A stretch of DNA of 64,000 bases, from positions 66,619 to 130,618 of the forward strand of contig JAFEAO010000005.1 of NCBI GenBank assembly GCA_018266375.1, in the 5' to 3' direction. The DNA is from Bdellovibrionales bacterium. GTDB taxonomy: Bacteria > Bdellovibrionota > UBA1018 > CAIMNF01. The notes under the pieces were generated by a model. The model saw nothing but the letters and a program-made list of their open reading frames with translations. It did not search any database and was not told the DNA's origin. How positions within the stretch are numbered: the stretch's first letter is position 1; each line of letters starts with the position of its first letter. Below are positions 806-62,076 of the stretch, piece after piece. The position numbers and the translations under genes are program-made.

Positions 806-1048
806 GAATTCTCCTTTAGCCACGGATTAAAAAATCTGCTTAAGGTCAATCCATCGGTCGCCAGGCTGTTACTTCGCTTGCGCACACTCGGATGTTTGGG
901 AAACAATCGCGAGGTATCGGGCTCATGACATCCTGTACATGATCACCGGCAAGCCATATTGTGTTCTGGCTAGGAACTGGAATTTGGACTTAGTTGTAAC
1001 GGAAGTTAAAATTTTACTACAAATCTGAGTAAAGCACAACAATAAGAT

Positions 1049-46635: not shown

Positions 46636-47295
46636 CTATTCAACAATGCGATCTGTGTTTTTATCCGGTCTAAACTGGAACATTTTGTCGTCGAGCTTTG
46701 GTTGCAGTTTGATTTCCTGCAATTTGATATCAGTTTTATTTCCGCTGGTGTGCGTTAGGATCACTTCTTCAATCTTATGACTAGCTTCATTAATGACTAC
46801 TTCGGCCGTTTTCACGTCACCCGCAGTTCCGTTCTTCGGTGTGAGTATAAACGAGTTTTTGGTCTTCTCGACGATCGTGGTCTTACCGCCGAACTCGAAA
46901 CTGCCTGAGAGAAGCATATTTAAGAACTGAGTCTGCACTTGGGCTGTTTTCTTAATGATGACTTGTCCTCGTTCGCCCTTTTCAAACGGGGGCGAATAGA
47001 ACCAAAACGTCTTGCCGTCGCTCACCAGGATGTTTGGGTCCGGATTGATCGTCTCCCAACGGAGTTTGTTAGGGCGCTTGATCCAGATCTTGCCTTGGGC
47101 CTTCTTGACCTGGCGCGTGGACTTCACGTCGATCAATTGATTGAACGTCGCTTCGAGACCCGCTGACTTCTTGTACTCGGCTTGCACCTTCGCTAAAAGC
47201 GGTGGAATCGCAACCGGAACCGATAGCGCGTTTGCCGTAACCGAAGTTAAAAGGACGAGACTACTGAAGCTCGATAGAAACCATGCGCGAGACAC
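46636..47295 (-). CDS. lolA: outer-membrane lipoprotein carrier protein LolA-like
   Basis: 219 aa with a signal peptide. FNQLIDVKSTRQVKKAQGKIWIKRPNKLRWETINPDPNILVSDGKTFWFYSP is LolA-like. Confidence 0.72.
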   Translation of the reverse strand: MSRAWFLSSFSSLVLLTSVTANALSVPVAIPPLLAKVQAEYKKSAGLEATFNQLIDVKSTRQVKKAQGKIWIKRPNKLRWETINPDPNILVSDGKTFWFYSPPFEKGERGQVIIKKTAQVQTQFLNMLLSGSFEFGGKTTIVEKTKNSFILTPKNGTAGDVKTAEVVINEASHKIEEVILTHTSGNKTDIKLQEIKLQPKLDDKMFQFRPDKNTDRIVE

Positions 47296-50200
47296 CCGGC
47301 TCCTCCATCGTCACGCCGTAGAGCGTGTCGTTCAGTTCCATCGTCTTCTTGTTGTGAGTGACGAGAATGAACTGAGATTTCGACGACATCTCGCGAACGA
47401 GAGCGTTGAACTTGCCGATGTTCGAATCGTCGAGCGGAGCGTCGACCTCGTCCAGAATACAGAACGGAGACGGCTTCACCATAAAGATCGCGAAAATGAG
47501 AGAAATTGCGGTCAGCGCTTTCTCACCACCCGAAAGCAAGGTCATGTTCGAAATTTTCTTTCCGGGAGGCTGAGCAAGAATATCCACGCCTGCTTCAAGG
47601 ATATCGGTCGATCCTTCCGGATAAACCAGGGTGAGCTGCGCCTGACCCCCGCCAAAAATGATCGGAAAGAGCTTTTCGAAACGTGTCGCAATCGCTTCAA
47701 AGGCTTTTTGGAAGCGTTCGATCGAAGTCTTATTGATGTGCTCGATCGCGTCGTTCAAGTTCTGAATCGATTGCTCGAGGTCCATTTTCTCTTTGTAGAG
47801 ATGCTCATGGCGGCGTTGCATATCGTCGAATTCTTCGACGGCCATCGTGTTGACTTCACCTAAGCGGCGGATGCGGTCGCGGAGTGACTCGACTTCTTCG
47901 TGGAGGACTTTTTCCTCTTCCTCGGAAATTTCAAGAGTCACCACAGGATCGGTCATCTCGGATTGCGGCTCTGCTTGATCCAAACAGCCTTCGCCGTATT
48001 TTTCTTCCATGTTGAGCTTCAAGTGATGGAGCTCGCCTTGGATGCGTTCGACGTCGATAGCGAATTGATTGATTTGCTGGTTTTTCTCGTCACCAAGCTT
48101 ATGGAGTTCCTTAATGCGGTCCATGTAGCCGGTCGTGAGAGTGGTCACTTGTTCCAAGCGATCGCGTACGGCTGAGAGCTCTTCACGTTTGTCAGTGAGT
48201 GCGCGAGTGAGAGCGAGAATCGCTTCTTCGTGCTCGAAATCACCGCCGCTGAACCGTTCGCGGTCTTGCTCGAAAGACTCGAGGAGACGGGCAAGCTCCG
48301 ACATGCGGCGTTCGCGGTCCTGTAGATACTTTTGTTCGGTTTCGAGTTCTTTCTTGAGAGAGTTTTTACGTTCGCTCGAAGAAGCCTCTTGAATCTTGAG
48401 TTGCTGAAGCCGTTCCTCATCGGCACGGAGAGATGCGTACTCGGCATCCACTTCGGATTCGTGATCGACAATCCATGCATCGAGAGCCGACTTGGTATTA
48501 GCCATCTCGAGAATGGAGTTTTCGACTTCAGCAATCTCGGTACGGGCAATCTCGGCTTGTTCCGCCGCAGTCTCACGGTCGTCAGCGGCACGCGCTTGGT
48601 TGCGATCGAACTCGGCGACTTGACGCTCGAGCTGAGTGCGTGAACGCTCGAGAGTTGTGACTTCGATTTCGAGGTCAGATGCGGTCGCTTGAAGCTGCTT
48701 CAATTCGGTTTCGACCGATTCCAATGCAACTTGAGCCGCGGTCAAAGCGGTTTCAGACGATTCGTACGTCGCCGTCACCGACTCGAGCTCTACTTTAAGC
48801 TCACCAATCACGCGCTTGCGCGAGAGAACTCCACCGGCTTGCTCGCTGTCGGTCGCGCCACCAAAGAGAACACCTTGGTTAGCATCAAACCAGATTCCAT
48901 TTTTAGTCACGAAGCTAATGCCTTCGGACTGGTAAGTCTTGATGTCGCCCATCGCCGGTACTTCTTCGAGAACTTCGACCGATGCGACGAGGTTTTCAAT
49001 CAAGCGGTGAACCGCTTTTGAGTTTTCAGCTGTATAGCCTTCTGGCATAACAAGCTTTACGAATTTTTTAAGCGGATTGTAGTTCGCGCGATCTTGCGTA
49101 TTTGCCGACGGAACCGCGATTTGAATCGAAGCGCTGCCTGACTTGCTCTCTTTCAAGAAGTTGAGTGCTGCGAATGCATCGTCGGCGTCTTGAGCGTACA
49201 GGCGCTCGAAAGCGTGGCCCATGACCGCTTCAACGGCGGCATCGTATCCGTTTTCGACCTCGATGAAATCCGAGAGAACGGCAAACGCCTTACCGTGTGA
49301 CTCGGTCCATTCCAAAATTTTTTTAGGCCCGTTGGCCATGCCTTCACGAGCGCGTTCGAGATCCTCGAGAGACTTTAATTTCGAGCTGAGGAGCGTGAGT
49401 CCCTTGTGAGATTCGTCACGTGTTTTGCGAGCCGCTCTCAAAGCATCTTCGGCGTCCGAGCGTGCGGCCTTTTGAGAATCGACGCGAGCACGGATTTCGT
49501 TACGGCTCGACGTCTTCTCGTTCAAATCCGTGGTTAAAGTCTCGAACTCGGCCCTGCTTTCAGATGCTTGCGTGCCGATTTCTGCGAGCAAAGAATCGAT
49601 GCGGGCCATTTGACCTTCGGCGCCCTGAATGCGCTCACGGAGCGCGGCGATTTGCGATTGGCTCTCGGTCGTGGTCTCGGTCAAACTCACGAACTCGCGG
49701 CGCTTGATTTCAGCTTCGCGTTTTTTGTCGTCGTGACGTTTACGGAAATCGGAAACATGTTGATTGAGCTCCGAAGTCTTCGCTGTGAGCTCGGCGACTT
49801 TCTCATCGATTCCCAAAAACTCTTCGTTTTTGCCCGCGATCGATTCGCGATGCATTCCCAAATCTTCTTCAATCTGATTGCGTTCGGCTTCGAGTTGAGC
49901 GAGTTGGCGGTTTAAGTCTTCTTGGCGCTGTTTCGAGAGGTGGAGCGCTGACTGGTGATGAGTGAGATCGCCGGCCAGTTTTTCGACCTCGGCTTGGACT
50001 TGCTCTTGGTTTTTAGAATCCGCGAGCTGAACCACGCGCTGAGATTCGAGATTGGCTTCGTTTTGCGCGAGCTCGGCACGAACACCCACGAGCAAATGAT
50101 CCAGACCTTCGCGATCGGCCTGAAGCTTGTCGAACTGACGTTTCAAAACTTGGTTCTTGCGACGGCCCCAAGTGGTTTCTTTTTCGAGAAGTTCTGAGCG

Positions 50201-50896
50201 GTATTCTTTGTATTTGCGGGCTTTCTGCGCCTGGCGCTCGAGCGATGCGAGTGAGCGATCAATCTCGGCAATAACGTCGTTCAAGCGTGACAAGTTGACG
50301 TTCGCGCCTTCGAGTTTGCGCAACGATTCTTTTTTACGCGCTTTGTATTTCGCGATCCCTGCCGCGTCTTCGATGAGCAAGCGTCGATCTTCGGGCTTCG
50401 AGTTCACGACTTTATCGATCTGTCCTTGCTCGATGACCGAGTAACCTTTTGCGCCGATACCGGTGTCCAAGAAAAGCTCCTGGATGTCTTTCAAGCGCGC
50501 CTGCACCCCGTTGATTGCGTATTCGCCGACGCCGTCCGCCCGATACACTCGACGAGTGACCGAAACTTCGCGAGTTTTTTTAGGGAGATTCTCTTCAGTC
50601 GACGCACCCATCGGCATGTTTTCGGTGTCGACGTAGTCTTGCTCGAGAACGAGAGTGGCTTCGGCCATGCCGAGAGGCTGGTACTTGCTTGAGCCTTTGA
50701 AAATGATGTCGTCAGAGCCGCTGGAACGGATGTGTTTGTAGGACTGTTCGCCCATGACCCAGAAGAAGGCGTCGACAATATTGGACTTTCCAGAGCCGTT
50801 TGGTCCGACAATACCGGTAATGGGGCGATCAAAGTGAATGATCGTTTTATCTTTGAATGACTTAAAGCCCTGAATCTCTAGACGTTTAATCCGCAT
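47261..50896 (-). CDS. smc: chromosome partition protein SMC
   Basis: Start at MRIKRLEIQGFKSFKDK...GPNGSGKSN (Walker A). It has long coiled-coil arms, a hinge, the C-terminal signature LSGGEKALTAISLIFAIF and Walker B ILDEVDAPLDD. Confidence 0.93.
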   Translation of the reverse strand: MRIKRLEIQGFKSFKDKTIIHFDRPITGIVGPNGSGKSNIVDAFFWVMGEQSYKHIRSSGSDDIIFKGSSKYQPLGMAEATLVLEQDYVDTENMPMGASTEENLPKKTREVSVTRRVYRADGVGEYAINGVQARLKDIQELFLDTGIGAKGYSVIEQGQIDKVVNSKPEDRRLLIEDAAGIAKYKARKKESLRKLEGANVNLSRLNDVIAEIDRSLASLERQAQKARKYKEYRSELLEKETTWGRRKNQVLKRQFDKLQADREGLDHLLVGVRAELAQNEANLESQRVVQLADSKNQEQVQAEVEKLAGDLTHHQSALHLSKQRQEDLNRQLAQLEAERNQIEEDLGMHRESIAGKNEEFLGIDEKVAELTAKTSELNQHVSDFRKRHDDKKREAEIKRREFVSLTETTTESQSQIAALRERIQGAEGQMARIDSLLAEIGTQASESRAEFETLTTDLNEKTSSRNEIRARVDSQKAARSDAEDALRAARKTRDESHKGLTLLSSKLKSLEDLERAREGMANGPKKILEWTESHGKAFAVLSDFIEVENGYDAAVEAVMGHAFERLYAQDADDAFAALNFLKESKSGSASIQIAVPSANTQDRANYNPLKKFVKLVMPEGYTAENSKAVHRLIENLVASVEVLEEVPAMGDIKTYQSEGISFVTKNGIWFDANQGVLFGGATDSEQAGGVLSRKRVIGELKVELESVTATYESSETALTAAQVALESVETELKQLQATASDLEIEVTTLERSRTQLERQVAEFDRNQARAADDRETAAEQAEIARTEIAEVENSILEMANTKSALDAWIVDHESEVDAEYASLRADEERLQQLKIQEASSSERKNSLKKELETEQKYLQDRERRMSELARLLESFEQDRERFSGGDFEHEEAILALTRALTDKREELSAVRDRLEQVTTLTTGYMDRIKELHKLGDEKNQQINQFAIDVERIQGELHHLKLNMEEKYGEGCLDQAEPQSEMTDPVVTLEISEEEEKVLHEEVESLRDRIRRLGEVNTMAVEEFDDMQRRHEHLYKEKMDLEQSIQNLNDAIEHINKTSIERFQKAFEAIATRFEKLFPIIFGGGQAQLTLVYPEGSTDILEAGVDILAQPPGKKISNMTLLSGGEKALTAISLIFAIFMVKPSPFCILDEVDAPLDDSNIGKFNALVREMSSKSQFILVTHNKKTMELNDTLYGVTMEEPGVSRMVSIELQ

Positions 50897-50944
50897 GCTG
50901 CCCCCTGCCCACACATCATCCTCAAATGAGCAGGAAATGGCAAG

Positions 50945-51346
50945 TTAAGCTACAGACTTTTTGACGGTTTTAGAGAGCTCATCTTTTATTGCGGTGCAGA
51001 AAGTTTGGCGTGAAAAGATCGGCGCATGTGCCTCACCATCCATCAGAATTTCGGTCGTTTTCAGAATCATTTCTTCGGCCACCAAAAACACCGGCGTATG
51101 CGGATGTTGATTCTGTAAGTGTTTTGAAAATTGGATTCCATCGCCCTGCATCTCCGGACAATGACTCAGAAGGAGTTCGGCGAATATGAAATCATACTCC
51201 CGCTTTGAAATGAGTTCACGAGCGCGGCTAAAGGTCACCGCGGTTTCGACTTCAACATCGAAATCCTGGAGCGTCTTCATGACTTTGATTCGCTCCCCGA
51301 GGTGATCTTCTACGAGTAAAACCCGCTTTTTTCCGGCCCTTTTCAC
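50945..51346 (-). CDS. single-domain CheY-like receiver with non-canonical active site (pseudo-receiver)
   Basis: 133 aa with a receiver fold (VLLVEDH...). The phospho-acceptor position reads FIFAELLL, with Glu in place of Asp. Thr is replaced by Ala (LVAEE) and the conserved Lys is absent. It lies 49 nt upstream of smc on the same strand. Confidence 0.62.
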   Translation of the reverse strand: MKRAGKKRVLLVEDHLGERIKVMKTLQDFDVEVETAVTFSRARELISKREYDFIFAELLLSHCPEMQGDGIQFSKHLQNQHPHTPVFLVAEEMILKTTEILMDGEAHAPIFSRQTFCTAIKDELSKTVKKSVA

Positions 51347-51804
51347 GATTTTTCCTGTCCCATTCCCGCGTTACTAAAATTTTATAAAAAAGGGCCCGCA
51401 GATCTGAGATATGCGGGCCCAAGATGTCATTGTGACTTCTATCTAGGGGGTTGGGGGGTAAGATCGTCGCCACATGTATATATTCGGGCTCCCTCTCCCT
51501 AACTTTCCCCTTACAATTTTGTATTTAATTTTTTGGTCCGCTGATCCCGTTCTTCCTGGCCGGGAAGAACTACTCAGTTCACAAGTCCCGCCGATATCCC
51601 GCGTCAAACCTGTGCCTTACCTAGCGTGGGGGACCTGCACAATCGATTTCAATCTTTTCGTATTCGTTTTGAGGTAGCTGTTGCGCTGAGATGATGCTCA
51701 TTACGGCCTCCGTACTAATAGAATCTTATACTTGATGAATTTGATCAACTAAAAAGTTAAAACTTTTTGTTTATTTTTTTGTTCAATAAATTCAATATAT
51801 TATC

Positions 51805-52548
51805 ATGACTTCTTTGAGCATCATTCTGCCGGCCTACAACGAGGCAAAGCGGCTCCCCCGGACTTTTAGCCTGATTAAAAAGGCGATCAAACAAGGGGTC
51901 TTCGACCAGTGTGATCTTCAAGAGATCCTGGTCGTCGACGACGGCTCTAAAGACAACACCATCCAAGCTGCAGAGGCTGCAAAAACCGAGCTCCCTCAAA
52001 TCCGGGTGGTGCCCATTGTCCCAAACGCCGGCAAAGGAAACGCGATCCACACCGGACTTCGGGAGTCTCGCAGCGACTGGTGCCTCATCGCGGATGCCGA
52101 CAGCGCCACCCCGTGGGATCAATTCATGAAACTTTGGTGGGCGATTCAAAAAAGCAAAGAACCAACCCAGATCGCGATCGGATCACGCGACCTTCCGGAG
52201 AGCGAAATTCGCACTTCTCAATCTTGGCTCCGCGAACACATGGGGAAAACATTCAATTTATTTGTCCGGATAATTACGGGCCTGCCGTTTAAAGACACTC
52301 AGTGCGGTTTCAAACTCATCCATCGCGGATCGATTCAGCCGTTTATCTCACTCCTCATCGTAAAGCGCTTCGCTTGGGACGTGGAGTTCCTCATGTTCGC
52401 CCGCGTGTACAACTTGAATACCGTCGAGGTTGCCGTCGCATGGGAACACCAAGACGATAGCCGCGTGAGCAAGCTAAAAGACAGCGCCGAGATGTTACTT
52501 CGCGTGCTTCAAATGAGAATCCGACTTTTCTTTCTGAAATGGAAATAA
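51805..52548 (+). CDS. polyprenyl-phosphate sugar synthase-type GT2 glycosyltransferase (Dpm1/ArnC/GtrB-like)
   Basis: 247 aa. SIILPAYNEAKRL...VVDDGSKDNT...IADADSATP are the GT2 DxD/DAD motifs typical of dolichyl/undecaprenyl-phosphate sugar synthases. The 3' end overlaps the next gene by 10 nt. Confidence 0.85.
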   Translation: MTSLSIILPAYNEAKRLPRTFSLIKKAIKQGVFDQCDLQEILVVDDGSKDNTIQAAEAAKTELPQIRVVPIVPNAGKGNAIHTGLRESRSDWCLIADADSATPWDQFMKLWWAIQKSKEPTQIAIGSRDLPESEIRTSQSWLREHMGKTFNLFVRIITGLPFKDTQCGFKLIHRGSIQPFISLLIVKRFAWDVEFLMFARVYNLNTVEVAVAWEHQDDSRVSKLKDSAEMLLRVLQMRIRLFFLKWK

Positions 52549-55500
52549 ACAAACCAGATCGCGCTTTCCGGTTCGGAATCCTGTGCTGCGCACTTTTGTG
52601 TTTGTACATTCTGTTTTTCCTCCCGACCTTCGATCTCGACGAGTCGCTCTACCGTCGTGTCGCGGCCGAAATGAAGTTGCACGGAGACTATTGGCATCCC
52701 ACTTGGGATGCGCGCCCGCTCTTGCACAAGCCGCCGATCTTATACTGGATCATCGATTTTTTCAGTTCGGTCATCGATCGCACGCCCGACTACGTGAGCT
52801 CAGTCGCCGCACGCATGCCGGGATTTTTAATTTCAGTCGCGATGACGTTCGCTCTCGGGTGGCGGGCGTCAATGTACTTGTGGATGGGAGCATTCCCCCT
52901 CCTCACCGTTTGCTCGGTGATTTACGATCCGCTTCAAACGCTGGCGCTACTCCCTGCGCTATTGATTCCGGTGCGTTGGTTTCATGAAGATCGCGCAGGC
53001 ACGACTCGCGAGTACGCGTACGTCGCGCTCAGCATGTTCGCCGCCTGCGCGGTCAAAGGATTGAACGGACTCGTGCTACCTGCGCTTGCGGTCGGCGTGC
53101 AACTCCTCGTGCGCGGGGGACCCGAGATGTGGCGACGCGGGTTTGCGTTCAAGGTCAAATCGTTTTGGCCGGCGGTCGCACTCTCGGCCCTCTACTACTG
53201 GTGGCTCGATCAAAAGATGGGTCGGGCGTTTACCGAAGAGTTTTTTTTGGTCCAACACTTCGGGCGCTCACAGGCAGCGCAAGAGTCTCACGGCGGTGGA
53301 ATCCTGTACTACCCGCTCGTCGTATTCATCGGCGCGGGGATGATGCTTCCGTTTTTAATCTCAGCGATAAAATCCCTCGGCAACCTACCTCCGGAGGGTC
53401 CCACGTTACGCCAGACTTTCGCGCGCGTCGGATTCCCTCTTACCTACGCACTTTGTTTCATCGTTTTATTTAGTTTTTCGGCTACAAAACTTCCGCATTA
53501 CCTTTGGCCGATTTGGCCAGCTCTGGCGATTTTTATCGCCGGACGTGAAAGGAGTCCCATGGGTCGCATCGTTCTTATGATCTCATTGATCCCGATGTTT
53601 ATTTTTACGGCAACGTCGATCTTGCTCGCACTGAACCCGATCAGCTTACTGCATGACGTGATCGGATCACCGGCGTTTAAAGCCATTTTCCCGATCGACT
53701 ACTCGATGCCGCTTTCGAGCCGGGCGATGTTCGCGCTGGCAGCGATCATCGGCGCTTCGATCGTCGTCAGACGCCGCAAACTCGCTGAGACGCCTTCGAA
53801 GGCGTTCGGGCAATCGGCTCTCTTCTGCTTGCTGCTCGTCGGCGCCTTCGGACCGATCTTTATCGAACGCGTGCACAATCCGGCGATGGAAATCGCGAAA
53901 GACGTGAACTCACTCGATTACCCGCCGAACACGTGTATGTGGTACACGGGCCCGCACTCGGCAACTTTGAGTATCGCCCTCGGTAACAATATTCTCCACA
54001 ACCGCTGCGAACCACCCGACATGGCGATGATGATCGCACCGGATTGGAAAGTACAAGAGTGCGAAGAGCGCGGAATGAAAGTCGTGAGCCATCACGGTTA
54101 CTTGAACTTGTGCGTGAGCACGACCAAATCCGGAACTTGGGGCGCGAAAGCGTTCGAACCGGGTTTTGGCGGCGTAGGTGGCGCACCGATGGCGAATGCC
54201 AACCCAACAGGCACGGCTATCCTTCCGGGTGCTGACGGAATTCTTGGAACGGCCGACGACATCGTGGTTCAGAATCACGTTCAAGTCGGCGGCGAAGACG
54301 CGACGGATCCTCAGAGCGCAGCAATGCAAGAACTTGTCGTGACTCAGCTCGCGGGCATGGATAAAACTCCCAACACTCTCGACGACGTCGTGACTTACAC
54401 TTACGCCGGCCCGGACGGAAAGCTCGGTACCGAAGACGACGTTCCGGCTCCGCGCCTTGGCCGTCGCAAATCTAAATCGACCAAATCTGCTCAGTCCGCA
54501 GTCACTCACCTCGGGTTCGACAAGGCGGGCAACACCGAGACCATGGAGTTCGTCGGCGGCGACGGAGTCGAAGGCACTGCCGATGACGTCGTTGTGACCC
54601 GCGCTGCGGGTCCGGATGGAAAAACCGGAACGGCCGACGACGTGGTAGTCACGCAAATGGTGGGTGAAGACGGAATCGCCGGTACCAAAGACGACATCGA
54701 ACTTGTGCGAACCGTGGGCGACGACAAAATTCCGGGAAACGCCGACGACGTGGTTTCTTACGTGTACGCAGGTCCGGATAAAATTTTCGGAACCGAAGAC
54801 GACGTTCCGACCACTCCGTTGGCAAAAAAAGATCATAAAGCTTACTCCGACAAAGAATCGAAGAAAGTGAAGAGCACTCAGCTCGATCTCGGCGATGACC
54901 GCGAAGTCGTCATGACGTTTGCGGGTGAAGACGAAAAGTTCGGCACTTCGGACGACGTTGTGGTGATTAAAGACAAGAAAACGGGCAAGACGACCACTCA
55001 AGCGATCGGCGAAGACAAAACTCCCGGCACCGAAGACGACGTCTCGGTCACTCGCTTGGTTGGCGACGATGGAATCCCAGGAACAGAGGACGACGTCGTC
55101 GCATACAAATATGCGGGACCGGATAAGGCTTTCGACACCGGGGACGACGTTCCTGCGACTCCGCTAGGAATCGCGGCAACTTCGATTCCGGCTCCGGGTC
55201 GCGATCCGATCTTGGGTAATCTGAAAAATAATTCGCGCGGGATTCCACGCACTCGTTCTTCCAAAAAAGGAAAAGTCGTGCACATCGGGCTAAAAGACGG
55301 CCGCGAAGTCGTGATGACCTTTACCAGCGAAGACGAACACGGCAACGCGAAACCCGCTCCGGATGACGTTGCCGTTATCAAAGACAAGAGAGGCAAAGTC
55401 ACGAGACAAATGATCGGCGACGACTTAACTCCGGGAACGGCGGATGACGTCGTAGTCACAGAGTTCATCGGTAAAGACAAACTCGCTGGGTCTAAAGATC

Positions 55501-56189
55501 ACGTTCTCGTTGCGAAACGCGTGGGTCCGGATTTGCTTCCGGATACTGCCGATGACGAAGTGATCGACCTCGCCAAGGGCGGCATCCAATTCAAAGGCGG
55601 TAAACCTCTAGTCGAGGGCGAACAATCTACTGCAGGCGCAGTCACCGATACAAAGGGCGCGGTGAAAATGAAAGTAACCGACGCTAAAGGTGCCGCTACC
55701 GGAACGGGCGCATACGCGAAGAAGGCAGACGAGAAACCGCCAATTGCAAAAATGTTCCCGGTACCGCCAAAGAAACCGACTCCTCGCAAAGCGATCGTAA
55801 AGGTCGCAAAACCGGCCGCACCGAAGACTCCAAAAGAAAATCCAGCGAAGGTAAAGAAGATCGCGTTTGAGAAAAACGTAAAGGTGGTCGAACAGCAAGT
55901 TCTCGCAATGGACTTCTGCGAAGCTTATCTCTGCGACGATCAGTATAAATCCGAACGCGTCCTTGAGAACATCGAATCGTTTAACTACGACTACCAAGAG
56001 CCGCAGTATCGCGCGGTTCAGCTCAAAATGCTAAACGATTCGCTCATCAAAGCGATCGAGTACAAAAAGAACTGGCGCAAGTACACGCCCGAGTACGAAG
56101 TCGGATTGATGAGCCAAGAGCAAGTGGACGGGATCATGACTCCGCTCATTCAGCGCTTGCGCGACAACATCAAACTCCTGAAGAAGTAA
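52539..56189 (+). CDS. fusion protein: N-terminal ArnT/PMT-like GT-C membrane glycosyltransferase (about 500 aa) + about 600-aa Asp/Thr-rich tandem-repeat region + Lys/Pro-rich linker + C-terminal globular domain
   Basis: 1216 aa. The first loop, FDLDESLYRRVAAEMKLHGDYWHPTWDARPLLHKPPILYW, closely parallels the ArnT DE..YAEISREM...FEKPPLxYW signature. About 12 TM helices follow. From about aa 560 onward there are at least 15 copies of a 13-16-aa unit G-x-D-G-x-x-G-T-x-D-D-V-V-V-T (for example PGADGILGTADDIVV, AGPDGKTGTADDVVVT, VGDDGIPGTEDDVVAY). These are organised into three roughly 90-aa super-repeats that each begin REVVMTF-(A/T)-(G/S)-EDE. Then come AKP-rich spacers and a final roughly 110-aa domain containing two Cys. 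Confidence 0.78.
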   Translation: MEINKPDRAFRFGILCCALLCLYILFFLPTFDLDESLYRRVAAEMKLHGDYWHPTWDARPLLHKPPILYWIIDFFSSVIDRTPDYVSSVAARMPGFLISVAMTFALGWRASMYLWMGAFPLLTVCSVIYDPLQTLALLPALLIPVRWFHEDRAGTTREYAYVALSMFAACAVKGLNGLVLPALAVGVQLLVRGGPEMWRRGFAFKVKSFWPAVALSALYYWWLDQKMGRAFTEEFFLVQHFGRSQAAQESHGGGILYYPLVVFIGAGMMLPFLISAIKSLGNLPPEGPTLRQTFARVGFPLTYALCFIVLFSFSATKLPHYLWPIWPALAIFIAGRERSPMGRIVLMISLIPMFIFTATSILLALNPISLLHDVIGSPAFKAIFPIDYSMPLSSRAMFALAAIIGASIVVRRRKLAETPSKAFGQSALFCLLLVGAFGPIFIERVHNPAMEIAKDVNSLDYPPNTCMWYTGPHSATLSIALGNNILHNRCEPPDMAMMIAPDWKVQECEERGMKVVSHHGYLNLCVSTTKSGTWGAKAFEPGFGGVGGAPMANANPTGTAILPGADGILGTADDIVVQNHVQVGGEDATDPQSAAMQELVVTQLAGMDKTPNTLDDVVTYTYAGPDGKLGTEDDVPAPRLGRRKSKSTKSAQSAVTHLGFDKAGNTETMEFVGGDGVEGTADDVVVTRAAGPDGKTGTADDVVVTQMVGEDGIAGTKDDIELVRTVGDDKIPGNADDVVSYVYAGPDKIFGTEDDVPTTPLAKKDHKAYSDKESKKVKSTQLDLGDDREVVMTFAGEDEKFGTSDDVVVIKDKKTGKTTTQAIGEDKTPGTEDDVSVTRLVGDDGIPGTEDDVVAYKYAGPDKAFDTGDDVPATPLGIAATSIPAPGRDPILGNLKNNSRGIPRTRSSKKGKVVHIGLKDGREVVMTFTSEDEHGNAKPAPDDVAVIKDKRGKVTRQMIGDDLTPGTADDVVVTEFIGKDKLAGSKDHVLVAKRVGPDLLPDTADDEVIDLAKGGIQFKGGKPLVEGEQSTAGAVTDTKGAVKMKVTDAKGAATGTGAYAKKADEKPPIAKMFPVPPKKPTPRKAIVKVAKPAAPKTPKENPAKVKKIAFEKNVKVVEQQVLAMDFCEAYLCDDQYKSERVLENIESFNYDYQEPQYRAVQLKMLNDSLIKAIEYKKNWRKYTPEYEVGLMSQEQVDGIMTPLIQRLRDNIKLLKK

Positions 56190-56274: not shown

Positions 56275-56475
56275 TCAGCTAAAATCGCGGTCCATTACGG
56301 TTTTGCGTCCGTCGCGCTTAGCAGCTTCTACCGCTTGGTCGCAAAGATCGCGCACTTTGTCTGAAAGTACGTCGATGACTGCTGCTGAAGTGTTCATGCC
56401 TGACTTAGCACGAATGTAGTTCTTCAATTTAGAAGCGACGATCAAAACTTCTTTTTCTGCATTACCTTCTGTCAT
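56275..56475 (-). CDS. histone-fold DNA-binding protein (archaeal HMfB-like / Bdellovibrio HBb-like). Minimal 66-aa form; the in-frame ORF extends to 56835
   Basis: MTEGNAEKEVLIVASKLKNYIRAKSGMNTSAAVIDVLSDKVRDLCDQAVEAAKRDGRKTVMDRDFS aligns to the HMfB pattern (...RIIKNAGAERVSDDA...EIASEAVKLAKHAGRKTIKAEDI), including the diagnostic A-K-x-x-GRKT-[IV] motif. The ATG at 56475 has a GAAAGGGA RBS-like sequence upstream. The ORF is continuous for another 120 codons upstream (see findings). Confidence 0.6.
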   Translation of the reverse strand: MTEGNAEKEVLIVASKLKNYIRAKSGMNTSAAVIDVLSDKVRDLCDQAVEAAKRDGRKTVMDRDFS

Positions 56476-56869
56476 GGTGTAGTCCCTTTCTTCTTCTGAT
56501 TCTTGTTCTTCTGAACCTAAACCTGCAATAAATCTTTCCCGATCCGATACGACTTTTCGACTGGTTCCACTGCTGGCTGCCTTCTCGCGAGGTGACTCGG
56601 AGGTCGATGGTGCATCGTCTGCGGTGAGCTCTTTTGGAGCTCGGTTTTCTAACGCCCAGGATTCTCGATGGTTATACAACGGAACGTGGGCATCCCAACA
56701 CTCTACTGAGCAAAAAACCAGTCCAGTACGTTTTCGGTTACAGGTCGAAACATTACAGGTCCAATACACAGATTTCAAGTGAATCGGTTTCTTACATGAG
56801 GAGCAAAGCTTCCAAACGATCTGTGTGGTGTCCACACTCGAAATTCTTCAATGGTTTCAAATAAAAAGC

Positions 56870-57182: not shown

Positions 57183-57698
57183 ATGAAAAAGTTTATTCCA
57201 TCGTGCCTCTTGATGACACTGTTAGTGACCGCTCTGAGCGGTTGCGGTGAACTACGCCCCGAAGCGGCCGCTACCTACGCGCGCGAACGCCAAGAGCAGG
57301 AAGATCGCCAGAACCCACCGAAGATCCCAACCCTCGTCGTCAATAACATCACTTACGATTCGACTGGCGCGACCGATCTTCGTTACTTGATCTCTTTTAA
57401 CTCGGGCGCGAAAACTTTCAGCTTTCAAGTCTCAAGAACCGCTTGGGGCCCGACTTCAAAAACGATTTCGGTTTCTCGCAGTAACATGCCTGCTCAATTC
57501 GATTTGCTCGTCAGCGTATTCGCCGGCAAAGTCGGCATTACGGTCGATACTCAATGTACTACCGACTGTCCGGTCAGCTCTGCCGAGCTACTCCGCAGCG
57601 ACACGGGCGTGAGTATGTCCACTCCAAATCCTTTCGTTGCAGACGGCAATGGGAATCTCTTCACTAATTTGAATCATTTTATTTTAAACCACCTGTAG
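57183..57698 (+). CDS. hypothetical lipoprotein
   Basis: 171 aa with lipobox ALSGCG. No recognised domain. Confidence 0.6.
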   Translation: MKKFIPSCLLMTLLVTALSGCGELRPEAAATYARERQEQEDRQNPPKIPTLVVNNITYDSTGATDLRYLISFNSGAKTFSFQVSRTAWGPTSKTISVSRSNMPAQFDLLVSVFAGKVGITVDTQCTTDCPVSSAELLRSDTGVSMSTPNPFVADGNGNLFTNLNHFILNHL

Positions 57699-58272
57699 TA
57701 ATTGCTTCGAAGACCCCGCTCCGGATCATCGAAACCGCGATGGCAGCAAGTAAGAGAGCTGCGATTTTAGAAATCACGACCGTTCCGTCTTTGCCGATCA
57801 CTCTCTGGATAACGGCGCTTCGGAGCAGGACGATCCATGCAAATACGTAGTTTACAATCAATGCCGCAAGCGTGATCGGGTATCCCGTCGCATCGACTTG
57901 AATCATCAGTGCGGTCAATACCGCGGGGCCCGTGATGAGCGGTACTGCAAGCGGCACTACTCCGGTCGAGCCCGACACCTTCTGCTTGTTTTCCTGACCG
58001 CCCAAGAGGTCGGCAAGCGAGATCAGAAGGAGCACTAGCCCACCCGCCATTTTGAAATCAAAGAGCTGAATCCCGAGATAACGGAACAGCGCGCGTCCGC
58101 CGACCATGAAAACTACGGCGACAACGAGGGCAACGAGCATGGATTGGTTGACGACCTTGCGGCGCTGATCCTCGGGAAGATCGCGGGTCATGCCCAGATA
58201 CACCGGTAGCGTACCGATAATGTCTAATGCTACAAACACCGCGGTAAAGGTCAGTAGGAAATTTTGGAACAT
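57679..58272 (-). CDS. MarC-family (UPF0056) integral membrane protein
   Basis: 197 aa with 6 TMs. The N-terminus FLLTFTAVFVALDIIGTLPVYL is typical of MarC. Confidence 0.8.
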   Translation of the reverse strand: MFQNFLLTFTAVFVALDIIGTLPVYLGMTRDLPEDQRRKVVNQSMLVALVVAVVFMVGGRALFRYLGIQLFDFKMAGGLVLLLISLADLLGGQENKQKVSGSTGVVPLAVPLITGPAVLTALMIQVDATGYPITLAALIVNYVFAWIVLLRSAVIQRVIGKDGTVVISKIAALLLAAIAVSMIRSGVFEAITTGGLK

Positions 58273-58283
58273 GAACTTTTTTA

Positions 58284-60068
58284 TTAGCCGACTTGCTTCT
58301 CGCCGCTGTCTTTATCGCTGTCTGTGCTCGTCGGCGGTACCAATTTGGCGATGCGTACCTGATTGCGTCCATTGCGCTTACATTCGTACATCGCATCGTC
58401 GGCCATGTTAAAGAGAGCGCGCGGATCCTTGGTGTGAAGCCCAGTTTGAGAAATACCCACGGAGACCGTCACCTTCAAATTTAGATTTTCGTAGACGAAG
58501 TCTTTCTTCGCGATTTTTTCGCGGAATTCTTCGAGCAATAAAATCGCTTCTTCGGCCGTAGTTTCAGGCATGACCAAACAAAACTCCTCGCCACCATAAC
58601 GGTAAGCCTGGTCCTGATGGCCTTGACGACGCAGATCCATAAATACTGATGCGACCGATTTCAGGATGAAATCGCCGGCTTTGTGGCCGTGCTTATCGTT
58701 GAATTGTTTGAAATGGTCGATGTCGCAAATCACAAGCGAGAGCGGCTTATCTTCGACCACCGCTTTTGCGGCGAGTTCGTAGAACGTGTCCTCGAAGTGA
58801 CGCGAGTTATTGAGACCGGTGAGACGGTCGGTGATCGACGCCGAGTAGAGACGCGACTTGTGCAACGAGACCGCGGATTGGTCGGCGATCCCTTGCAAGA
58901 GACTCAAGTCCTCGCGAGTGAAGCGTCCGAGCGTATCGAGAACGGCTGACCCGTCTTTTTCGATATGCACCTTGTTGGTGAAGTTCATGATGCCCTCGAG
59001 CTGGCCGCCGTTCAATACCGGGACCGAGCAGATGCAGTAAGTTTCAAAAGAGCCCATTTGCGGAATGTCATCGCGGTTATTGACCACGACCGATTTGCGC
59101 TGAAGGGCTGATTGTCCGGCGATCCCCTCGCCGATGTCAAATGACTTGGTCTCGATCCGCCCCGAGTTCAAACCTTCGAGTACGTTTTCGTCGATGTAAC
59201 CCCACGCGACCGTGAGCTCGAGTTTGCCGGTCTGACGGTTCAAGAGCATCAGGTTGCCCTTTTGCGCTTTGACCGCCTTGACCGCGTTGCGAATCGTTTC
59301 GCGGCAAAGGAGTTTGAAATCGTTGATCGTCGACAACTCTTGGTGGAAATCGTAAAGAATCTGAATGTTGTTCAAGATCCGTTGGTTTTTCTCGTAACGA
59401 AGGGTCGAGTCGATGATCGTAGTAGCGAGCGACGCGAGCTCTTGGACGAACGAATAATCGGTTTCTGAAATCTGAGTCCCATCGCGGCGTTCGCCGAGCG
59501 TGAGGACACCGATGACCTCGCCGCTTTTAATGAGCGGACACCAGAAGTCCGAGCGCAAAACGTCGAGGCCGAGTTTTTCCCATGCGGTCGTGAAACGCGG
59601 TTCCTTTTGAAGGTCGCGGACCGAAAACACGTTACCTTGTTGAATGAGCTGCCAGAGAAGACCGTTGTTCTTTTCGATGCGGAAAAGATAGAGCGGCTCT
59701 TTGCGGCCCATCGAATCGATGTAGTGATCCTCGAGTCCGAAATAGCGCATCACCTGGAAGTGCTCTTTCTCGCCGTTTTCAAAATCTTCTTTGAGGAGCA
59801 CGCTTGAATTGGTGAGGTCGTAACGCTCGCGGACGACGGCCATGAAAGTATCGAGCAAGTGCGGAAGGTTCAAAATATTTGAAAGACCTTTACCTGATTG
59901 AAGGAGCGCTTGCATTTCGAAAATTCGAATGTCCTGCGCGGTGACTTTACCTTTGAGACCTTTGATCTCGCGCTTCAAACTACGGATCAAATCCCCTTGG
60001 CTGTTGTCGAAACCATCCCCGGTGTGGGTGGCAGTGACCTCTAAAAATTTTGGGTTGGAAGAATCCAT
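58284..60068 (-). CDS. GAF-domain diguanylate cyclase (GGDEF)
   Basis: 594 aa with two GAF-like regions, then GGDEF with RYGGEEF (A-site) and a RxxD I-site context (...DRLTGLNNSRHFEDTF...). Confidence 0.88.
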   Translation of the reverse strand: MDSSNPKFLEVTATHTGDGFDNSQGDLIRSLKREIKGLKGKVTAQDIRIFEMQALLQSGKGLSNILNLPHLLDTFMAVVRERYDLTNSSVLLKEDFENGEKEHFQVMRYFGLEDHYIDSMGRKEPLYLFRIEKNNGLLWQLIQQGNVFSVRDLQKEPRFTTAWEKLGLDVLRSDFWCPLIKSGEVIGVLTLGERRDGTQISETDYSFVQELASLATTIIDSTLRYEKNQRILNNIQILYDFHQELSTINDFKLLCRETIRNAVKAVKAQKGNLMLLNRQTGKLELTVAWGYIDENVLEGLNSGRIETKSFDIGEGIAGQSALQRKSVVVNNRDDIPQMGSFETYCICSVPVLNGGQLEGIMNFTNKVHIEKDGSAVLDTLGRFTREDLSLLQGIADQSAVSLHKSRLYSASITDRLTGLNNSRHFEDTFYELAAKAVVEDKPLSLVICDIDHFKQFNDKHGHKAGDFILKSVASVFMDLRRQGHQDQAYRYGGEEFCLVMPETTAEEAILLLEEFREKIAKKDFVYENLNLKVTVSVGISQTGLHTKDPRALFNMADDAMYECKRNGRNQVRIAKLVPPTSTDSDKDSGEKQVG

Positions 60069-60201
60069 ATCACTGCACTTTTCGGTAGAATCGGGTCAAA
60101 AATTAAACGCAAATTTTCCCAGTGATTACATATATTTTGTTGAGTTTGGATTGGCCCGATAAATAATTGACTGAGAGGGCCTCGGTGACTATACTCCGCG
60201 C

Positions 60202-62076
60202 ATGTCAAAACGCGCACATTCTTTAGTTTTTACCCTAACTTACGCAATCTTCGCGGCAATCCCGGCCGCCACCGCCGCTCCTTACGCAGCGCCGGTGAAG
60301 CTCTCTTTCTTAATGACAAATGACGTCCACGGTCACCTTGAGCCAAACGGGAGCATCGGAGGCCTCAGCACTCTTGCCACCATTGTTCATACCATCGCCG
60401 GGCAAGCGGAATATCAGAACGGTCGCGCCGGTTTCTTTACCATCGACTCGGGCGACCAATTCCAGGGCACGCTCATCAGCAACTACGACGAAGGCAGTGC
60501 GGTCTTCAAAGCATTCAATGAAATCGGATACGACGCGATCATTCCAGGCAACCACGATTACGACTTCGGTCCGATCAACTGGCTTTACGACCGTGTGACC
60601 CCAGGCCAAACCGGCAACAATCCGCGCGAAGTGATCGAAGGCTTGTCCGCAATCGCGAAATTCCCGATGCTGTCCGCCAACACCTATATTAAGAAAACGA
60701 TCAAGAGCACTGTTGCAGGCGAACTCACTCTCGACAACTCATGCGTTCCAACCAACCAAACCCTGCGGGACAAGCTCGATTTCAGCACCGCTGAACGCCC
60801 GGCGTTCTTGAAGCCTTACGTGATCGTCGAAAAAGCCGGCGTTCGCGTCGCCCTCATCGGTATCGACAACAAAAATACAACCGCCATGACCACCGGTGAA
60901 AACGTCGGTGACCTCTGCTTCCGCGATGAAGCCGAGACTTACATCGAACTCCGCAAACAACTCGAAGGCCAAGCCGACGTGTTCGTGATCCTCATGCACA
61001 ACGGCGACACTAAAAGCACTGAGAAAGCGACTTTGGGCGTGAAAGACGGATCCGACATCGGATCTAAAATCTTGGACGCGATTCCGGACGGCGTGGATTT
61101 GATCGCCGCCGGCCACACCCACTACACTCACAATAACCAAGTCAACGGTGTACGCGTAATCCAAGACGGTGCTGAAGCTAGAGCCTTCGGCCGCGTGGAT
61201 TTATTTTTCGACCCGATTAACAAAAAAGTTTTAAGGAACATGACCCGCAGCTGGGCAGGCCAGGAGATCGACCCGGGCAAGTGCGCGATCGAGAAAGCCG
61301 ACCGCAACGCGTTCATCTGCGATCAGTATCCGGTACTCCCCGTTGCTAAAAACGCGGTGGTCGAAGACATCATCGCGAGCTTAAAGAATCAGATTGCACC
61401 GCTCGCGAAAAAGAAAATTCTTACCGCGAACGTGAAACTCACCCGCAACCGCATTGGCGAGAGCCCGCTCACGAACGTACTGACCGACGCTTTTCGCCGC
61501 GCGACGAAGACCGAGATTTCATTCATGAACACCGGTGGGATCCGCGTCGACTTGCCGGCGGGCGACATTTTGTACGAAAAATACTTCGAAGTCCTCCCGT
61601 TCAACAACCAAGCGGTGATCATCAATGCTTTACGCTGGGACATGGTAAAGACCTTGCTGATCAAGTCGATCCAAACTTGCGGCAAATACGGCTCACTCCT
61701 TTTCAGCGGTCTCCGAATCGAGTTCACCCGTACTTGCACTCCGACCAGTGACATGGACATGAACGCCCAGCTTGTAAAAGTCACAACCGACTCGGGCGAA
61801 GTCCTCATGGATGGCCGCTTTGAAGTTGCCGCGGACCGCACTTTCAAAATTGCGACTCTAGACTTTATCGCGGACGGCGGCAACGGATACGAAGTGTTTC
61901 GCGGCGTGAAGCAAGACGGACGCCCGGGCATCGCCCGTGAACTCATCGCCGATCAATTGTCGAGCGAGCACTTCGTGGCTGAAGGCGCGGTCGACGGCCG
62001 CATGAAAAACATCGCCCCAACCGTACAGAGCACGATCAGGGCGATCGGTAATCCTCGCAATAGAGCTGGAAACTAG
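60202..62076 (+). CDS. secreted bifunctional 5'-nucleotidase / UDP-sugar hydrolase (UshA family)
   Basis: 624 aa with a signal peptide. It has calcineurin-like metallophosphatase motifs (NDVHGH, GNHDYDFG, GHTHY) plus a C-terminal 5'-nucleotidase substrate-binding domain. Confidence 0.85.
   Translation: MSKRAHSLVFTLTYAIFAAIPAATAAPYAAPVKLSFLMTNDVHGHLEPNGSIGGLSTLATIVHTIAGQAEYQNGRAGFFTIDSGDQFQGTLISNYDEGSAVFKAFNEIGYDAIIPGNHDYDFGPINWLYDRVTPGQTGNNPREVIEGLSAIAKFPMLSANTYIKKTIKSTVAGELTLDNSCVPTNQTLRDKLDFSTAERPAFLKPYVIVEKAGVRVALIGIDNKNTTAMTTGENVGDLCFRDEAETYIELRKQLEGQADVFVILMHNGDTKSTEKATLGVKDGSDIGSKILDAIPDGVDLIAAGHTHYTHNNQVNGVRVIQDGAEARAFGRVDLFFDPINKKVLRNMTRSWAGQEIDPGKCAIEKADRNAFICDQYPVLPVAKNAVVEDIIASLKNQIAPLAKKKILTANVKLTRNRIGESPLTNVLTDAFRRATKTEISFMNTGGIRVDLPAGDILYEKYFEVLPFNNQAVIINALRWDMVKTLLIKSIQTCGKYGSLLFSGLRIEFTRTCTPTSDMDMNAQLVKVTTDSGEVLMDGRFEVAADRTFKIATLDFIADGGNGYEVFRGVKQDGRPGIARELIADQLSSEHFVAEGAVDGRMKNIAPTVQSTIRAIGNPRNRAGN

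Follow-up and report, generated by a model that had tools for sequence, protein, structure and literature searches.

The window, that is the whole 64,000-nucleotide stretch of DNA analysed here, carries two overlapping genes that encode a GT2 glycosyltransferase and a large membrane glycosyltransferase of the GT-C type, the latter ending in a long acidic repeat region, a basic linker and a helical domain (Table 1). The large ORF begins with an ATG at position 52539 and shares its first 10 nt with the end of the GT2 gene (TAA stop codon at positions 52546-52548), in agreement with the overlap described in an earlier sequence-only reading of this DNA. No Shine-Dalgarno sequence is visible 5' of this ATG, and the two genes are probably coupled by termination and reinitiation of translation. 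At orthologous loci the same two genes overlap by 4 nt (L001, L003 and L004) or by 10 nt (the contig encoding P0002), and GT2 was found directly upstream of GT-C at each of the remaining family loci inspected. In one further protein, P0039, both enzymes form a single polypeptide, a fusion which could reflect a 1-nt sequencing error at the overlapping stop and start codons. The overlaps at five loci, the upstream position of GT2 elsewhere and the P0039 fusion together bear out the proposal of a two-gene module of the ArnC/ArnT or GtrB/GtrC type. A promoter and terminator scan of the operon gave results no better than those obtained with shuffled sequences.

Table 1. Features of the GT2/GT-C operon, in window coordinates.
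Feature	Coordinates	Strand	Remarks
GT2 glycosyltransferase gene	51805..52548	+	247 aa; ORF coordinates verified
Large GT-C ORF	52539..56189	+	1216 aa; ORF coordinates verified
GT2 stop/GT-C start overlap, 10 nt	52539..52548	+	ATGGAAATAA
GT-C membrane core, aa 1-445	52539..53873	+	~13 TM helices; from 5ezm alignments, invariant columns and AF2 model
Small alpha/beta periplasmic domain, aa 446-530	53874..54128	+	Invariant Cys C466, C490, C508, C525
Acidic repeat region, aa 531-1070	54129..55748	+	15 PERCAL-type motifs, aa 564-1006 (nt 54228-55556)
Pro/Lys-rich basic linker, aa 1071-1108	55749..55862	+	Net charge +11
C-terminal all-helical domain, aa 1109-1216, and stop codon	55863..56189	+	Helices predicted, pLDDT 55-81

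The neighbouring genes in the window encode a response regulator, an SMC protein, a histone-fold-like ORF product, MarC and a GAF-GGDEF protein. No arnA, arnB, arnD, arnE, arnF, lpx or PAP2 genes are adjacent to the operon in the window, the arn context is absent at the orthologous loci too, and no candidate protein-substrate gene is conserved beside the operon at these loci. Just upstream of the operon lie a conserved leader ORF and a structured RNA. The putative transcript of this element would run from about 51720 to 51386 on the minus strand, divergently from GT2; ribosomes may stall at the GPPR-stop of the leader ORF, and the element is a candidate regulator of the response regulator/smc genes or of the GT2 promoter. 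An Rfam scan of this intergenic region returned sub-threshold noise only, and a metagenome scan with a loose pattern of the RNA element retrieved 120 loci, all of which were chance matches by nhmmer (120/120).

The GT2 enzyme

GT2 belongs to PF00535 (E 4.2e-23) and its PDB relatives are headed by DPMS (5mlz, 1.6e-10), followed by ArnC (9hwj, 4.1e-9) and GtrB (5ekp, 2.1e-7); chondroitin synthase scores between the last two, but none of its stretches passes individually. The NCBIfam models matched include ArnC, PgfS, AglJ and PpgS, all under their cut-offs, and the orthologue in L003 bears the JGI name 'dolichyl-phosphate beta-glucosyltransferase' (ALG5-type). A DxD motif (D97-A-D99), which aligns with the DAD of DPMS and ArnC, and a KDTQCGFK motif were both found. 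Judged by these sequence relationships, GT2 is a probable polyprenyl-phosphate hexose synthase of the DPM1/ALG5/ArnC/GtrB type. We detected no TM helix in GT2, its highest 19-aa hydropathy value (1.4) falling within a charged segment, so that, unlike ArnC, GtrB and archaeal DPMS, the enzyme is devoid of C-terminal TM helices and resembles the TM-less DPM1 class. Enzymes of this class rely on a membrane partner, and GT-C may serve GT2 as its membrane anchor, a role to which the P0039 fusion points.

An ArnT-like membrane core

Neither the full-length large protein nor its two halves gave a usable Pfam match, and no PF02366 PMT domain, MIR domains or C-terminal TPR repeats were found in it. ArnT (5ezm) was recovered by phmmer with an E-value of 1.7e-8 and by a family profile with an E-value of 1.9e-21, as the sole significant sequence relative in the PDB. 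It was also the top structural match in a fold search with the AF2 model of GT-C (pLDDT 79.8, pTM 0.81), Emb structures being among the other fold matches. The assignment of residues 1-520 to an ArnT/GT-C-like enzyme, made initially from the sequence, is confirmed by these alignments. The protein is multi-pass, as had been stated, and carries a C-terminal periplasmic domain in keeping with the GT-C fold, but the model contains 13 TM helices, as in ArnT, rather than the approximately 12 first counted.

The GT-C residues that align with the substrate-binding residues of ArnT are D34/E35 (with D32), K64, H240, R243 and K317-L-P-H-Y321, the counterparts of ArnT D55, K85, H267, R270 and Y345 being conserved. 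In an alignment of 24 family members, D34 (with D32 and E35), K64, R243 and Y321 are invariant or nearly so, and D130 is a probable further ArnT-equivalent residue. Petrou and co-workers reportedly described in 2016 D55 of CmArnT as an acidic residue of the first periplasmic loop and K85, R270 and Y345 as lipid-phosphate-binding residues. The Zn site of ArnT is partly kept (H63/V238/H240 versus E84/H265/H267 in ArnT). Because GT-C scores only 30.3 bits against the NCBIfam ArnT equivalog NF009784, whose cut-off is 567 bits, we conclude that it is a distant relative of ArnT and no ArnT orthologue. The long extension had been thought to replace the usual periplasmic domain; instead, the domain formed by aa 446-530 is retained and an extension of ~686 aa is appended after it.

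A rare extended form of a short GT-C family

Only three extended proteins were found among 1.84e9 representative proteins, namely the window protein (1216 aa), P0002 (1016 aa) and P0003 (873 aa), in line with the initial impression of an unusual architecture, and these giants (n=3) are monophyletic in an NJ tree. A homologue search with the whole protein had recovered two real relatives only, the word filter being swamped by the repeats, and the short-form family surfaced only in separate searches with the N-terminal part and with a C-terminal profile. It comprises ~57 short GT-C homologues with 31-46% identity over aa 1-530, whose names come solely from Bdellovibrionales/Oligoflexia MAGs, and ~25 proteins, mostly ~545 aa long or fragments, match the small periplasmic domain alone, at their own C-terminus. 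Short-form members such as P0019 and P0021 (~545 aa) share the motifs, the four-Cys terminal domain and the upstream GT2 with the window protein, but stop at the small periplasmic domain directly after a YLxLC motif, where the window protein runs 686 residues further. About a dozen GTDB species carry the short form wherever the locus is complete. Synteny at L003 and L004 is as in the window, P0019 and P0021 lying at the chromosomal position of the giant. By position, the giant is thus orthologous to the ordinary ~545-aa GT-C of an uncultured Bdellovibrionales clade, in one sub-lineage of which the C-terminal periplasmic domain has been lengthened by ~690 residues.

The large ORF sits on one MAG contig and its repeat region stands apart in composition (GC3 0.59 versus 0.68), two points in favour of an artefact in which misassembly, a frameshift or an overlooked stop codon has merged two genes. 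Such an artefact, already envisaged in the sequence-only reading, is hardly credible given P0002 and P0003, which come from independent samples and share with the window protein the gene neighbours and the same unbroken three-part architecture, including the conserved C-terminal domain. P0003 was moreover found on two contigs, and a third contig encodes P0158 (877 aa), which differs little from it. A tblastn search with the tail over loci L001-L084, all short-form loci included, revealed no free-standing homologue, the only match being the gene of P0003 itself. A DNA-level tandem repeat search was also negative and so gave no hint of an assembly artefact; the repeats in the tail are old and diverged.

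PERCAL-type repeats and the C-terminal domain

The repeat region is organized as four modules of ~85-115 aa (about 556-640, 655-770, 788-885 and 921-1023), separated by linkers, two of which are clearly basic. The tail contains 15 copies of the motif under a relaxed definition, 6 of which also fit the strict one, and these are spaced mostly by exactly 18 aa, whereas shuffles of the same region contain on average 0.0004 strict and 0.009 relaxed motifs, so that the GTxDD repeat noticed at first is real. Secondary structure prediction placed, with low confidence, one beta-strand in each repeat unit. The repeat domain was initially taken to be novel, but its motif has been published as PERCAL, G-x-D-G-x-x-[GN]-[TN]-x-D-D, a Ca2+-binding motif (Santamaria-Hernando et al. 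2012, PMC3396595). The PERCAL peptide binds Ca2+ with a Kd of 33-79 uM, and in structure 3G20, of a type II secretion pseudopilin, the ion is coordinated by Asp and Thr side chains of the motif (PMC3396595). The tail repeat fits the PERCAL consensus in 6 strict and 9 further relaxed matches, to a total of 15. In Pseudomonas putida PepA, PERCAL motifs are isolated insertions in a peroxidase domain (PMC3396595), whereas the window tail displays them as regular 18-aa tandem units, in modules of ~100 aa, on a glycosyltransferase. We infer from this resemblance that the tail would bind Ca2+. It is devoid of any hydrophobic segment and comes after the domain homologous to the periplasmic domain of ArnT, a position from which a periplasmic location can be inferred.

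The identical motif, with its Thr conserved, occurs in unrelated surface proteins, including P0043, P0014-16, P0051 and P0054, none of which is a GT-C; motif-bearing proteins display SLH, choline-binding or lipoprotein features and are extracytoplasmic. The repeat also gave weak matches to the animal-peroxidase-domain proteins P0017 and P0018. The top repeat match, P0020 (7296 aa), is a frog titin-like protein and was treated as a compositional false positive. A PDB sequence search with the repeat region returned no relatives. Modelling of the extension with AlphaFold, suggested earlier, gave no usable fold: AF2 run on aa 446-1216 with a 3-sequence alignment reached a mean pLDDT of 43, with 25-40 in the repeat region, and this tail model is unreliable and unusable for fold searches.

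The extension had also been proposed to be the O-glycosylation substrate of its own enzyme, which would modify the Thr-rich repeats or the Pro/Thr module junctions. In its favour, 13 motif copies out of 15 contain a Thr and the tail is tethered beside the active site; in addition, DVPTTPL and DVPATPL, found at module ends, are sequences that we take to resemble actinobacterial O-mannosylation sites. We nevertheless consider self-glycosylation very improbable. The conserved Thr and Asp residues need no O-glycosylation to be explained because the equivalent PERCAL residues are Ca2+ ligands and the same Thr is conserved in the surface proteins listed above. Furthermore, the short-form orthologues are tail-less yet keep their GT2 partner, and the orthologous giants are far poorer in motifs, with 1 strict and 7 relaxed copies in P0002 and 0 strict and 4 relaxed copies in P0003.

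The linker that follows the repeats is partly conserved in P0002 and P0003. The helical end domain contains the invariant motifs CEAYLC and EYKKNW; it gave no profile match outside the three giant proteins in 1.84e9 representative proteins, and a PDB sequence search found no relative of it.

Discussion

The two-enzyme module described here is of the textbook ArnC/ArnT kind. We assign a probability of roughly 0.55 to its being a two-gene envelope-glycosylation operon in which GT2 supplies the donor, the ArnT-like GT-C transfers the sugar, the tail is loaded with Ca2+ and the acceptor is lipid A or LPS. GT2, as a soluble or peripheral enzyme, would synthesize a polyprenyl-phosphate hexose at the cytoplasmic face, its sugar being presumably of the glucose or mannose type. 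The lipid-linked sugar would then be flipped, although the operon contains no evident flippase gene, and on the periplasmic side of the inner membrane GT-C would move it onto the acceptor, while the tail, as a Ca2+-loaded periplasmic arm, would position the enzyme or capture the acceptor. The part played by this arm would be comparable to that of the TPR or CBM domains of other long GT-C enzymes.

ArnT, FlmK and RgtD/F all pair with a GT2 of this type, and by analogy with them lipid A or the inner LPS is the likeliest acceptor and our leading guess. Precedents for lipid A glycosylation exist in Francisella, with FlmF1/F2 and FlmK (PMC2233673), and in rhizobia, with RgtE and RgtD/F (cited in PMC7795004). 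In these systems the sugar (mannose, GalN or GalA) is first linked to undecaprenyl phosphate by a DPM1-like GT2 and then placed on lipid A by an ArnT-like GT-C (PMC2233673; PMC7795004), and the same logic would apply here. FlmK and RgtD/RgtF are of normal length, and we liken them to the window GT-C by this pairing logic and not by sequence comparison; several Flm and Rgt pathways also include a lipid A phosphatase (LpxE/LpxF), whereas none is adjacent in the window. PMC7795004 further cites a neutral lipid A bearing mannose in Bdellovibrio bacteriovorus. Since no close homologue of the window protein was seen in named, cultured Bdellovibrio, the tie to this mannosylated lipid A is an analogy only, and the literature searched yielded nothing specific on genes for ArnT or for a lipid A mannosyltransferase in Bdellovibrio. 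Arguing against this reading are the score of 30 versus 567 bits with the ArnT equivalog, the absence of adjacent arnA/B/D/E/F, lpx and PAP2 genes and a Zn site whose residues are only partly kept. Compared with ArnT (PmrK, the GT83 lipid A L-Ara4N transferase; 5EZM/5F15) and its partner ArnC (PmrF), the window GT-C shows ~17% identity, its GT2 is without the C-terminal TM helices of ArnC and arnA/B/D/E/F are not found nearby; ArnT has no equivalent of the 690-aa C-terminal tail.

The combination of a GT-C core with a large lumenal or periplasmic domain is also found in TMTC1-4 and TfpW (TPR) and in EmbA/B/C (carbohydrate-binding domains), where this domain is thought to handle the acceptor, and the window protein is built on the same architectural principle. 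The window protein differs from these long enzymes in its catalytic core, which is ArnT-like and not PMT- or Emb-like, and in its accessory part, which consists of Asp-rich Ca2+-motif repeats and a unique helical domain in place of TPR or CBM domains. GT-C could be imagined as a protein O-glycosyltransferase like PMT, TMTC or TfpW, the tail binding a protein substrate and the acceptor being a periplasmic or surface protein. We regard this as unlikely: ArnT is clearly the nearest relative both by sequence and by structure, PF02366 and MIR domains are absent, and no conserved candidate substrate gene adjoins the operon. Additionally, the ~57 short-form orthologues are without such an arm, which implies that the tail is dispensable for the basic reaction.

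In enteric bacteria, ArnT-type modifications respond to divalent-cation limitation. The fusion of ~15 motifs of the low-affinity type (Kd of the PERCAL peptide in the tens of uM) to an ArnT-like enzyme could suggest that the tail senses Ca2+ in the periplasm and switches the transferase on or off according to divalent-cation supply, providing a direct post-translational control of what is elsewhere entrusted to PhoPQ/PmrAB. This proposal is purely inferential and we hold it to be quite improbable. The number of motifs varies among the three orthologues (15, 7 and 4), and such variation is easier to reconcile with a spacer or a structural element than with a tuned sensor. It would be similarly speculative, and in our view improbable, to see in the tail a Ca2+-sensing or Ca2+-rigidified arm that makes the giant a one-protein sensor-effector of outer-membrane remodelling, linking envelope cations directly to an ArnT-like lipid A/LPS glycosyltransferase, the helical end domain docking on a cell-wall or outer-membrane partner.

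Until an acceptor is identified, these findings are of modest practical value. An ArnT-like subfamily confined to uncultured Bdellovibrionales-type bacteria and with an upstream GT2 at every locus inspected is new, and the literature searched held no identification of the transferases for the unusual sugar-substituted lipid A of a cultured relative. Also new are the rare extended enzyme, with an array of calcium-binding-type repeats and an end domain peculiar to the three giants, and the occurrence of PERCAL as a regular 18-residue tandem array, a repeat class without a Pfam model. If it is true that the tail senses or uses calcium, it would constitute an unusual direct link from the cation status of the envelope to its glycosylation.

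Enzymes of the glycosyltransferase pair

The two overlapping ORFs proposed by the sequence-only reading are both present in the window, as are the motifs that it quoted. The GT2 product belongs to PF00535 (Pfam, E 4.2e-23) and its top match among solved structures is the Pyrococcus dolichol-phosphate mannose synthase 5mlz (1.6e-10), with ArnC 9hwj (4.1e-9) next and GtrB 5ekp (2.1e-7) lower; a chondroitin synthase comes in between the ArnC and GtrB matches, with no single stretch of it passing alone. Its NCBIfam matches (ArnC, PgfS, AglJ and PpgS) all fall far under the equivalog cut-offs, and the orthologue at L003, a locus of a relative, bears the automatic JGI annotation 'dolichyl-phosphate beta-glucosyltransferase'. 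These relatives, a DxD motif (D97-A-D99) and the failure to find any TM helix in the GT2 identify it, as judged from sequence, as a polyprenyl-phosphate sugar synthase-type enzyme without TM helices. The GT-C ATG lies 10 nt inside the GT2 gene (junction ATGGAAATAA), and since no Shine-Dalgarno sequence was seen ahead of it at the junction, coupling of GT-C translation to that of GT2 by termination-reinitiation is plausible.

A phmmer search of all PDB sequences with the GT-C protein returned only ArnT 5ezm (residues 31-367, E 1.7e-8), which was again the sole PDB match of a 24-member family profile (E 1.9e-21). The AF2 model of residues 1-545 (pLDDT 79.8, pTM 0.81) displays 13 helices crossing the membrane, followed by a small alpha/beta domain at the C-terminus, and Foldseek ranked ArnT first with this model (E 1.8e-13, TM 0.67), so that the alignment of the N-terminal part to GT-C enzymes is borne out by both approaches. 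In HMMER alignments D34, K64, H240, R243 and Y321 sit at CmArnT D55, K85, H267, R270 and Y345 (numbering taken from the chain, with a 3-residue offset), whose roles we take to be those described by Petrou et al. 2016; the five residues are invariant or nearly so across the GT-C family. The ArnT Zn ligands are kept only in part, the small domain equivalent to the ArnT periplasmic domain has four invariant cysteines, and the protein scores 30 bits against the NCBIfam ArnT equivalog (cut-off 567). The window GT-C is predicted to function in an ArnT-like manner, yet it is no ArnT orthologue.

GT2 is found immediately upstream of GT-C at every family locus inspected, and the two genes overlap wherever the junction could be checked. 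Together with the retained ArnT-type residues, this arrangement shows at the sequence level that an ArnT-like GT-C keeping the donor-phosphate-binding residues has as its partner a GT2 of the polyprenyl-phosphate sugar synthase type, in agreement with the sequence-only reading. The module is of a known kind and its catalytic part is conventional.

Features of the module and its surroundings (window positions unless marked aa, which refers to the GT-C protein)
Feature	Position	Strand	Remarks
Conserved intergenic element	51386..51751	-	within 458-bp response regulator-GT2 gap 51347..51804
TTGAC-like box	in element	-	invariant
GGAGG Shine-Dalgarno	51703..51713	-	
Leader ORF	51621..51701	-	26-27 codons; conserved in 14/14 loci
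Strong intrinsic terminator	51386..51420	-	end of element
GT2 ORF	51805..52548	+	247 aa; ORF list
Giant GT-C ORF	52539..56189	+	1216 aa; ORF list
186-aa ORF	56275..56835	-	convergent with GT-C gene
Four acidic modules	aa about 556-640, 655-770, 788-885, 921-1023		net charge -5 to -14 each
Inter-module linkers			two clearly basic (+5, +7)
Pro/Lys-rich stretch	aa 1071-1108		net charge +11
Helical domain	aa 1109-1216		invariant CEAYLC and EYKKNW; net charge -2

A single giant gene in a family of short enzymes

Two giant orthologues found in other samples, P0002 (1016 aa) and P0003 (873 aa), can be aligned with the window protein from end to end: after the GT-C core and the small domain with its cysteines come repeats that differ in extent between the proteins, and then a C-terminal domain that is well conserved. 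They also share its neighbourhood: SMC, response regulator, GT2 (stop/start overlapping), GT-C, then MarC and GAF-GGDEF. With the same uninterrupted architecture and neighbourhood in both, and no DNA-level tandem repeat detected in the giant gene, a frameshift or missed stop as the source of the 1216-aa ORF, and with it the two-gene alternative, is effectively excluded.

A profile built from the last 771 residues recovered the whole architecture in only three proteins among 1.84 billion representative proteins, confirming its rarity, whereas about 25 others (full-length proteins of ~545 aa, and fragments) matched profile positions 1-82 only, at their own C-terminus. Residues 1-530 alone retrieved ~57 short proteins (31-46% identity), and the GTDB species-genome scan placed the GT-C family in about a dozen species; proteins and species alike are labelled as Bdellovibrionales, Bdellovibrio sp. 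or Oligoflexia MAGs, with a few evidently loose labels. The short-form ORF ends directly after a YLxLC motif in every complete locus, two short-form orthologues (P0019 and P0021) occupy exactly the giant's chromosomal position, and no free-standing tail homologue was found in the fetched loci L001-L084, all short-form loci included. Because the three giants form one clade (neighbour-joining tree, no bootstrap) in a normally short family, a single origin of the extension, within a sub-lineage, is most likely. The GT-C subfamily itself is new, though of unremarkable form.

A 769-aa protein, P0039, is a GT2::GT-C fusion (residues 4-248 share 50% identity with the window GT2, E 3e-82, and residues 265-760 share 33% with the GT-C, E 3e-71) that could stem from a 1-nt sequencing error at the overlapping stop/start. 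Comparison of window positions 46636..51346 and 57679..62076 with L001, L003 and L004 indicated that the order LolA - SMC - (response regulator) - GT2 - GT-C ... MarC - GAF/GGDEF - 5'-nucleotidase - S8 peptidase is kept across the Bdellovibrionales clade, the genes from GT-C to MarC being variable (OsmC, acetyltransferase or small unknown ORFs). The convergent 186-aa ORF has a Cys-rich (CxxC-type) N-terminal half and, at residues 153-184, a weak match to the Pfam CBFD_NFYB_HMF histone fold (E 0.005, below cut-off); it may encode a bacterial histone-fold protein. Histones are known from Bdellovibrionota.

Predicted calcium-binding repeats in the C-terminal tail

We infer that the tail is periplasmic, since no hydrophobic segment was found in it and it is placed after the ArnT-type periplasmic domain. 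Its 18-residue repeat unit consists of a short predicted beta-strand (VVVT) followed by G-x-D-G-x-x-G-T-x-D-D. Although it had been considered novel, this repeat matches the published PERCAL calcium-binding motif, G-x-D-G-x-x-[GN]-[TN]-x-D-D, whose consensus peptide binds Ca2+ specifically with a Kd of 33-79 uM (Santamaria-Hernando et al. 2012, PMC3396595). The tail contains 6 strict and 15 relaxed copies, against means of 0.0004 and 0.009 in same-region shuffles; relaxed copies number 7 in P0002 and 4 in P0003. No Pfam model was found for the PERCAL-type repeat. Long and regular tandem arrays of this type (GxDGxxGTxDD) also occur in unrelated bacteria, in numerous large proteins of surface or lipoprotein-like character (for example P0043, P0015, P0016, P0051 and P0054), which carry SLH, choline-binding or Flg_new domains or lipoprotein-like N-termini, and the weak tail matches include the peroxidase-domain proteins P0017 and P0018.

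The pseudopilin structure 3G20 (PGPDGVPNTEDD) shows the first Asp, the Thr and the last Asp of the motif coordinating the ion through their side chains (PMC3396595), and the conserved Thr and Asp of the tail repeats are explained on this basis as predicted metal ligands. The same residues had suggested that the tail might be an O-glycosylation substrate of its own GT-C; being accounted for as PERCAL ligands, and conserved also in proteins other than GT-C enzymes, they make self-glycosylation unlikely.

Neither the 1.84 billion representative proteins nor the PDB yielded a relative of the C-terminal helical domain (AF2 pLDDT 55-81) outside the trio. Accessory domains are already known from other long GT-C enzymes, namely TPR in TMTC and TfpW and CBM in Emb. 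The giant resembles these enzymes as a GT-C with an added repeat or binding domain but differs in the type of that domain, so the accessory-domain principle is not new whereas the domain type is. Of the proposal that the architecture is undescribed, what stands is the combination: the extended form, joining a GT-C core, a PERCAL-repeat array and an orphan helical domain, is new.

Proposed mechanism and acceptor

The GT2 would put a hexose on undecaprenyl phosphate at the cytoplasmic face, a flippase would move the lipid-linked hexose across and the GT-C would hand the sugar over at the periplasmic face. By analogy, lipid A or inner LPS is the favoured acceptor, because ArnT is the only significant solved relative, because enzymes paired in this way add mannose or GalN to lipid A in Francisella (PMC2233673) and GalA in rhizobia (PMC7795004), and because mannose is reported to replace phosphate in B. 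bacteriovorus lipid A (Schwudke et al. 2003, cited by PMC7795004). No close GT-C homologue was found in named, cultured Bdellovibrio, and the B. bacteriovorus lipid A therefore serves as an analogy only. The tail would most likely act as a Ca2+-loaded arm positioning the enzyme or capturing the acceptor, a Ca2+-sensing role being the more novel alternative.

Below P0002 and P0003, the first search with the whole protein gave weak matches, P0004-P0013; these are ~800 aa long and have both an ArnT/PMT_2 domain and a PAP2 phosphatase domain (PF01569), a fusion that would suit a 'dephosphorylate then glycosylate' reaction on lipid A or on a lipid carrier.

A conserved element upstream of GT2

The response regulator-GT2 gap is far better conserved in DNA than the flanking proteins, which are only about 40-60% identical. 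The element lies directly upstream of each GT2 in 14 loci (L001, L003-L014, L017), bordered on its other side by the response regulator in 4 and by smc in 10. Its leader ORF has the consensus MRxNAARxLSQxAKDEKHxVHx(A/V)GPPR-stop, with an invariant (A/V)GPPR-stop end, and its translation is supported by in-frame indels and by a single case in which the TAG stop is replaced with TGA. In the ~200 nt of RNA after the leader ORF, 22 of the 45 base pairs predicted by RNAalifold show compensatory changes; no Rfam match was found for the element. It looks like a leader peptide followed by a structured RNA and may act as a ribosome-stalling leader/attenuator or as a dual-function sRNA, and is possibly the more novel object in this neighbourhood.
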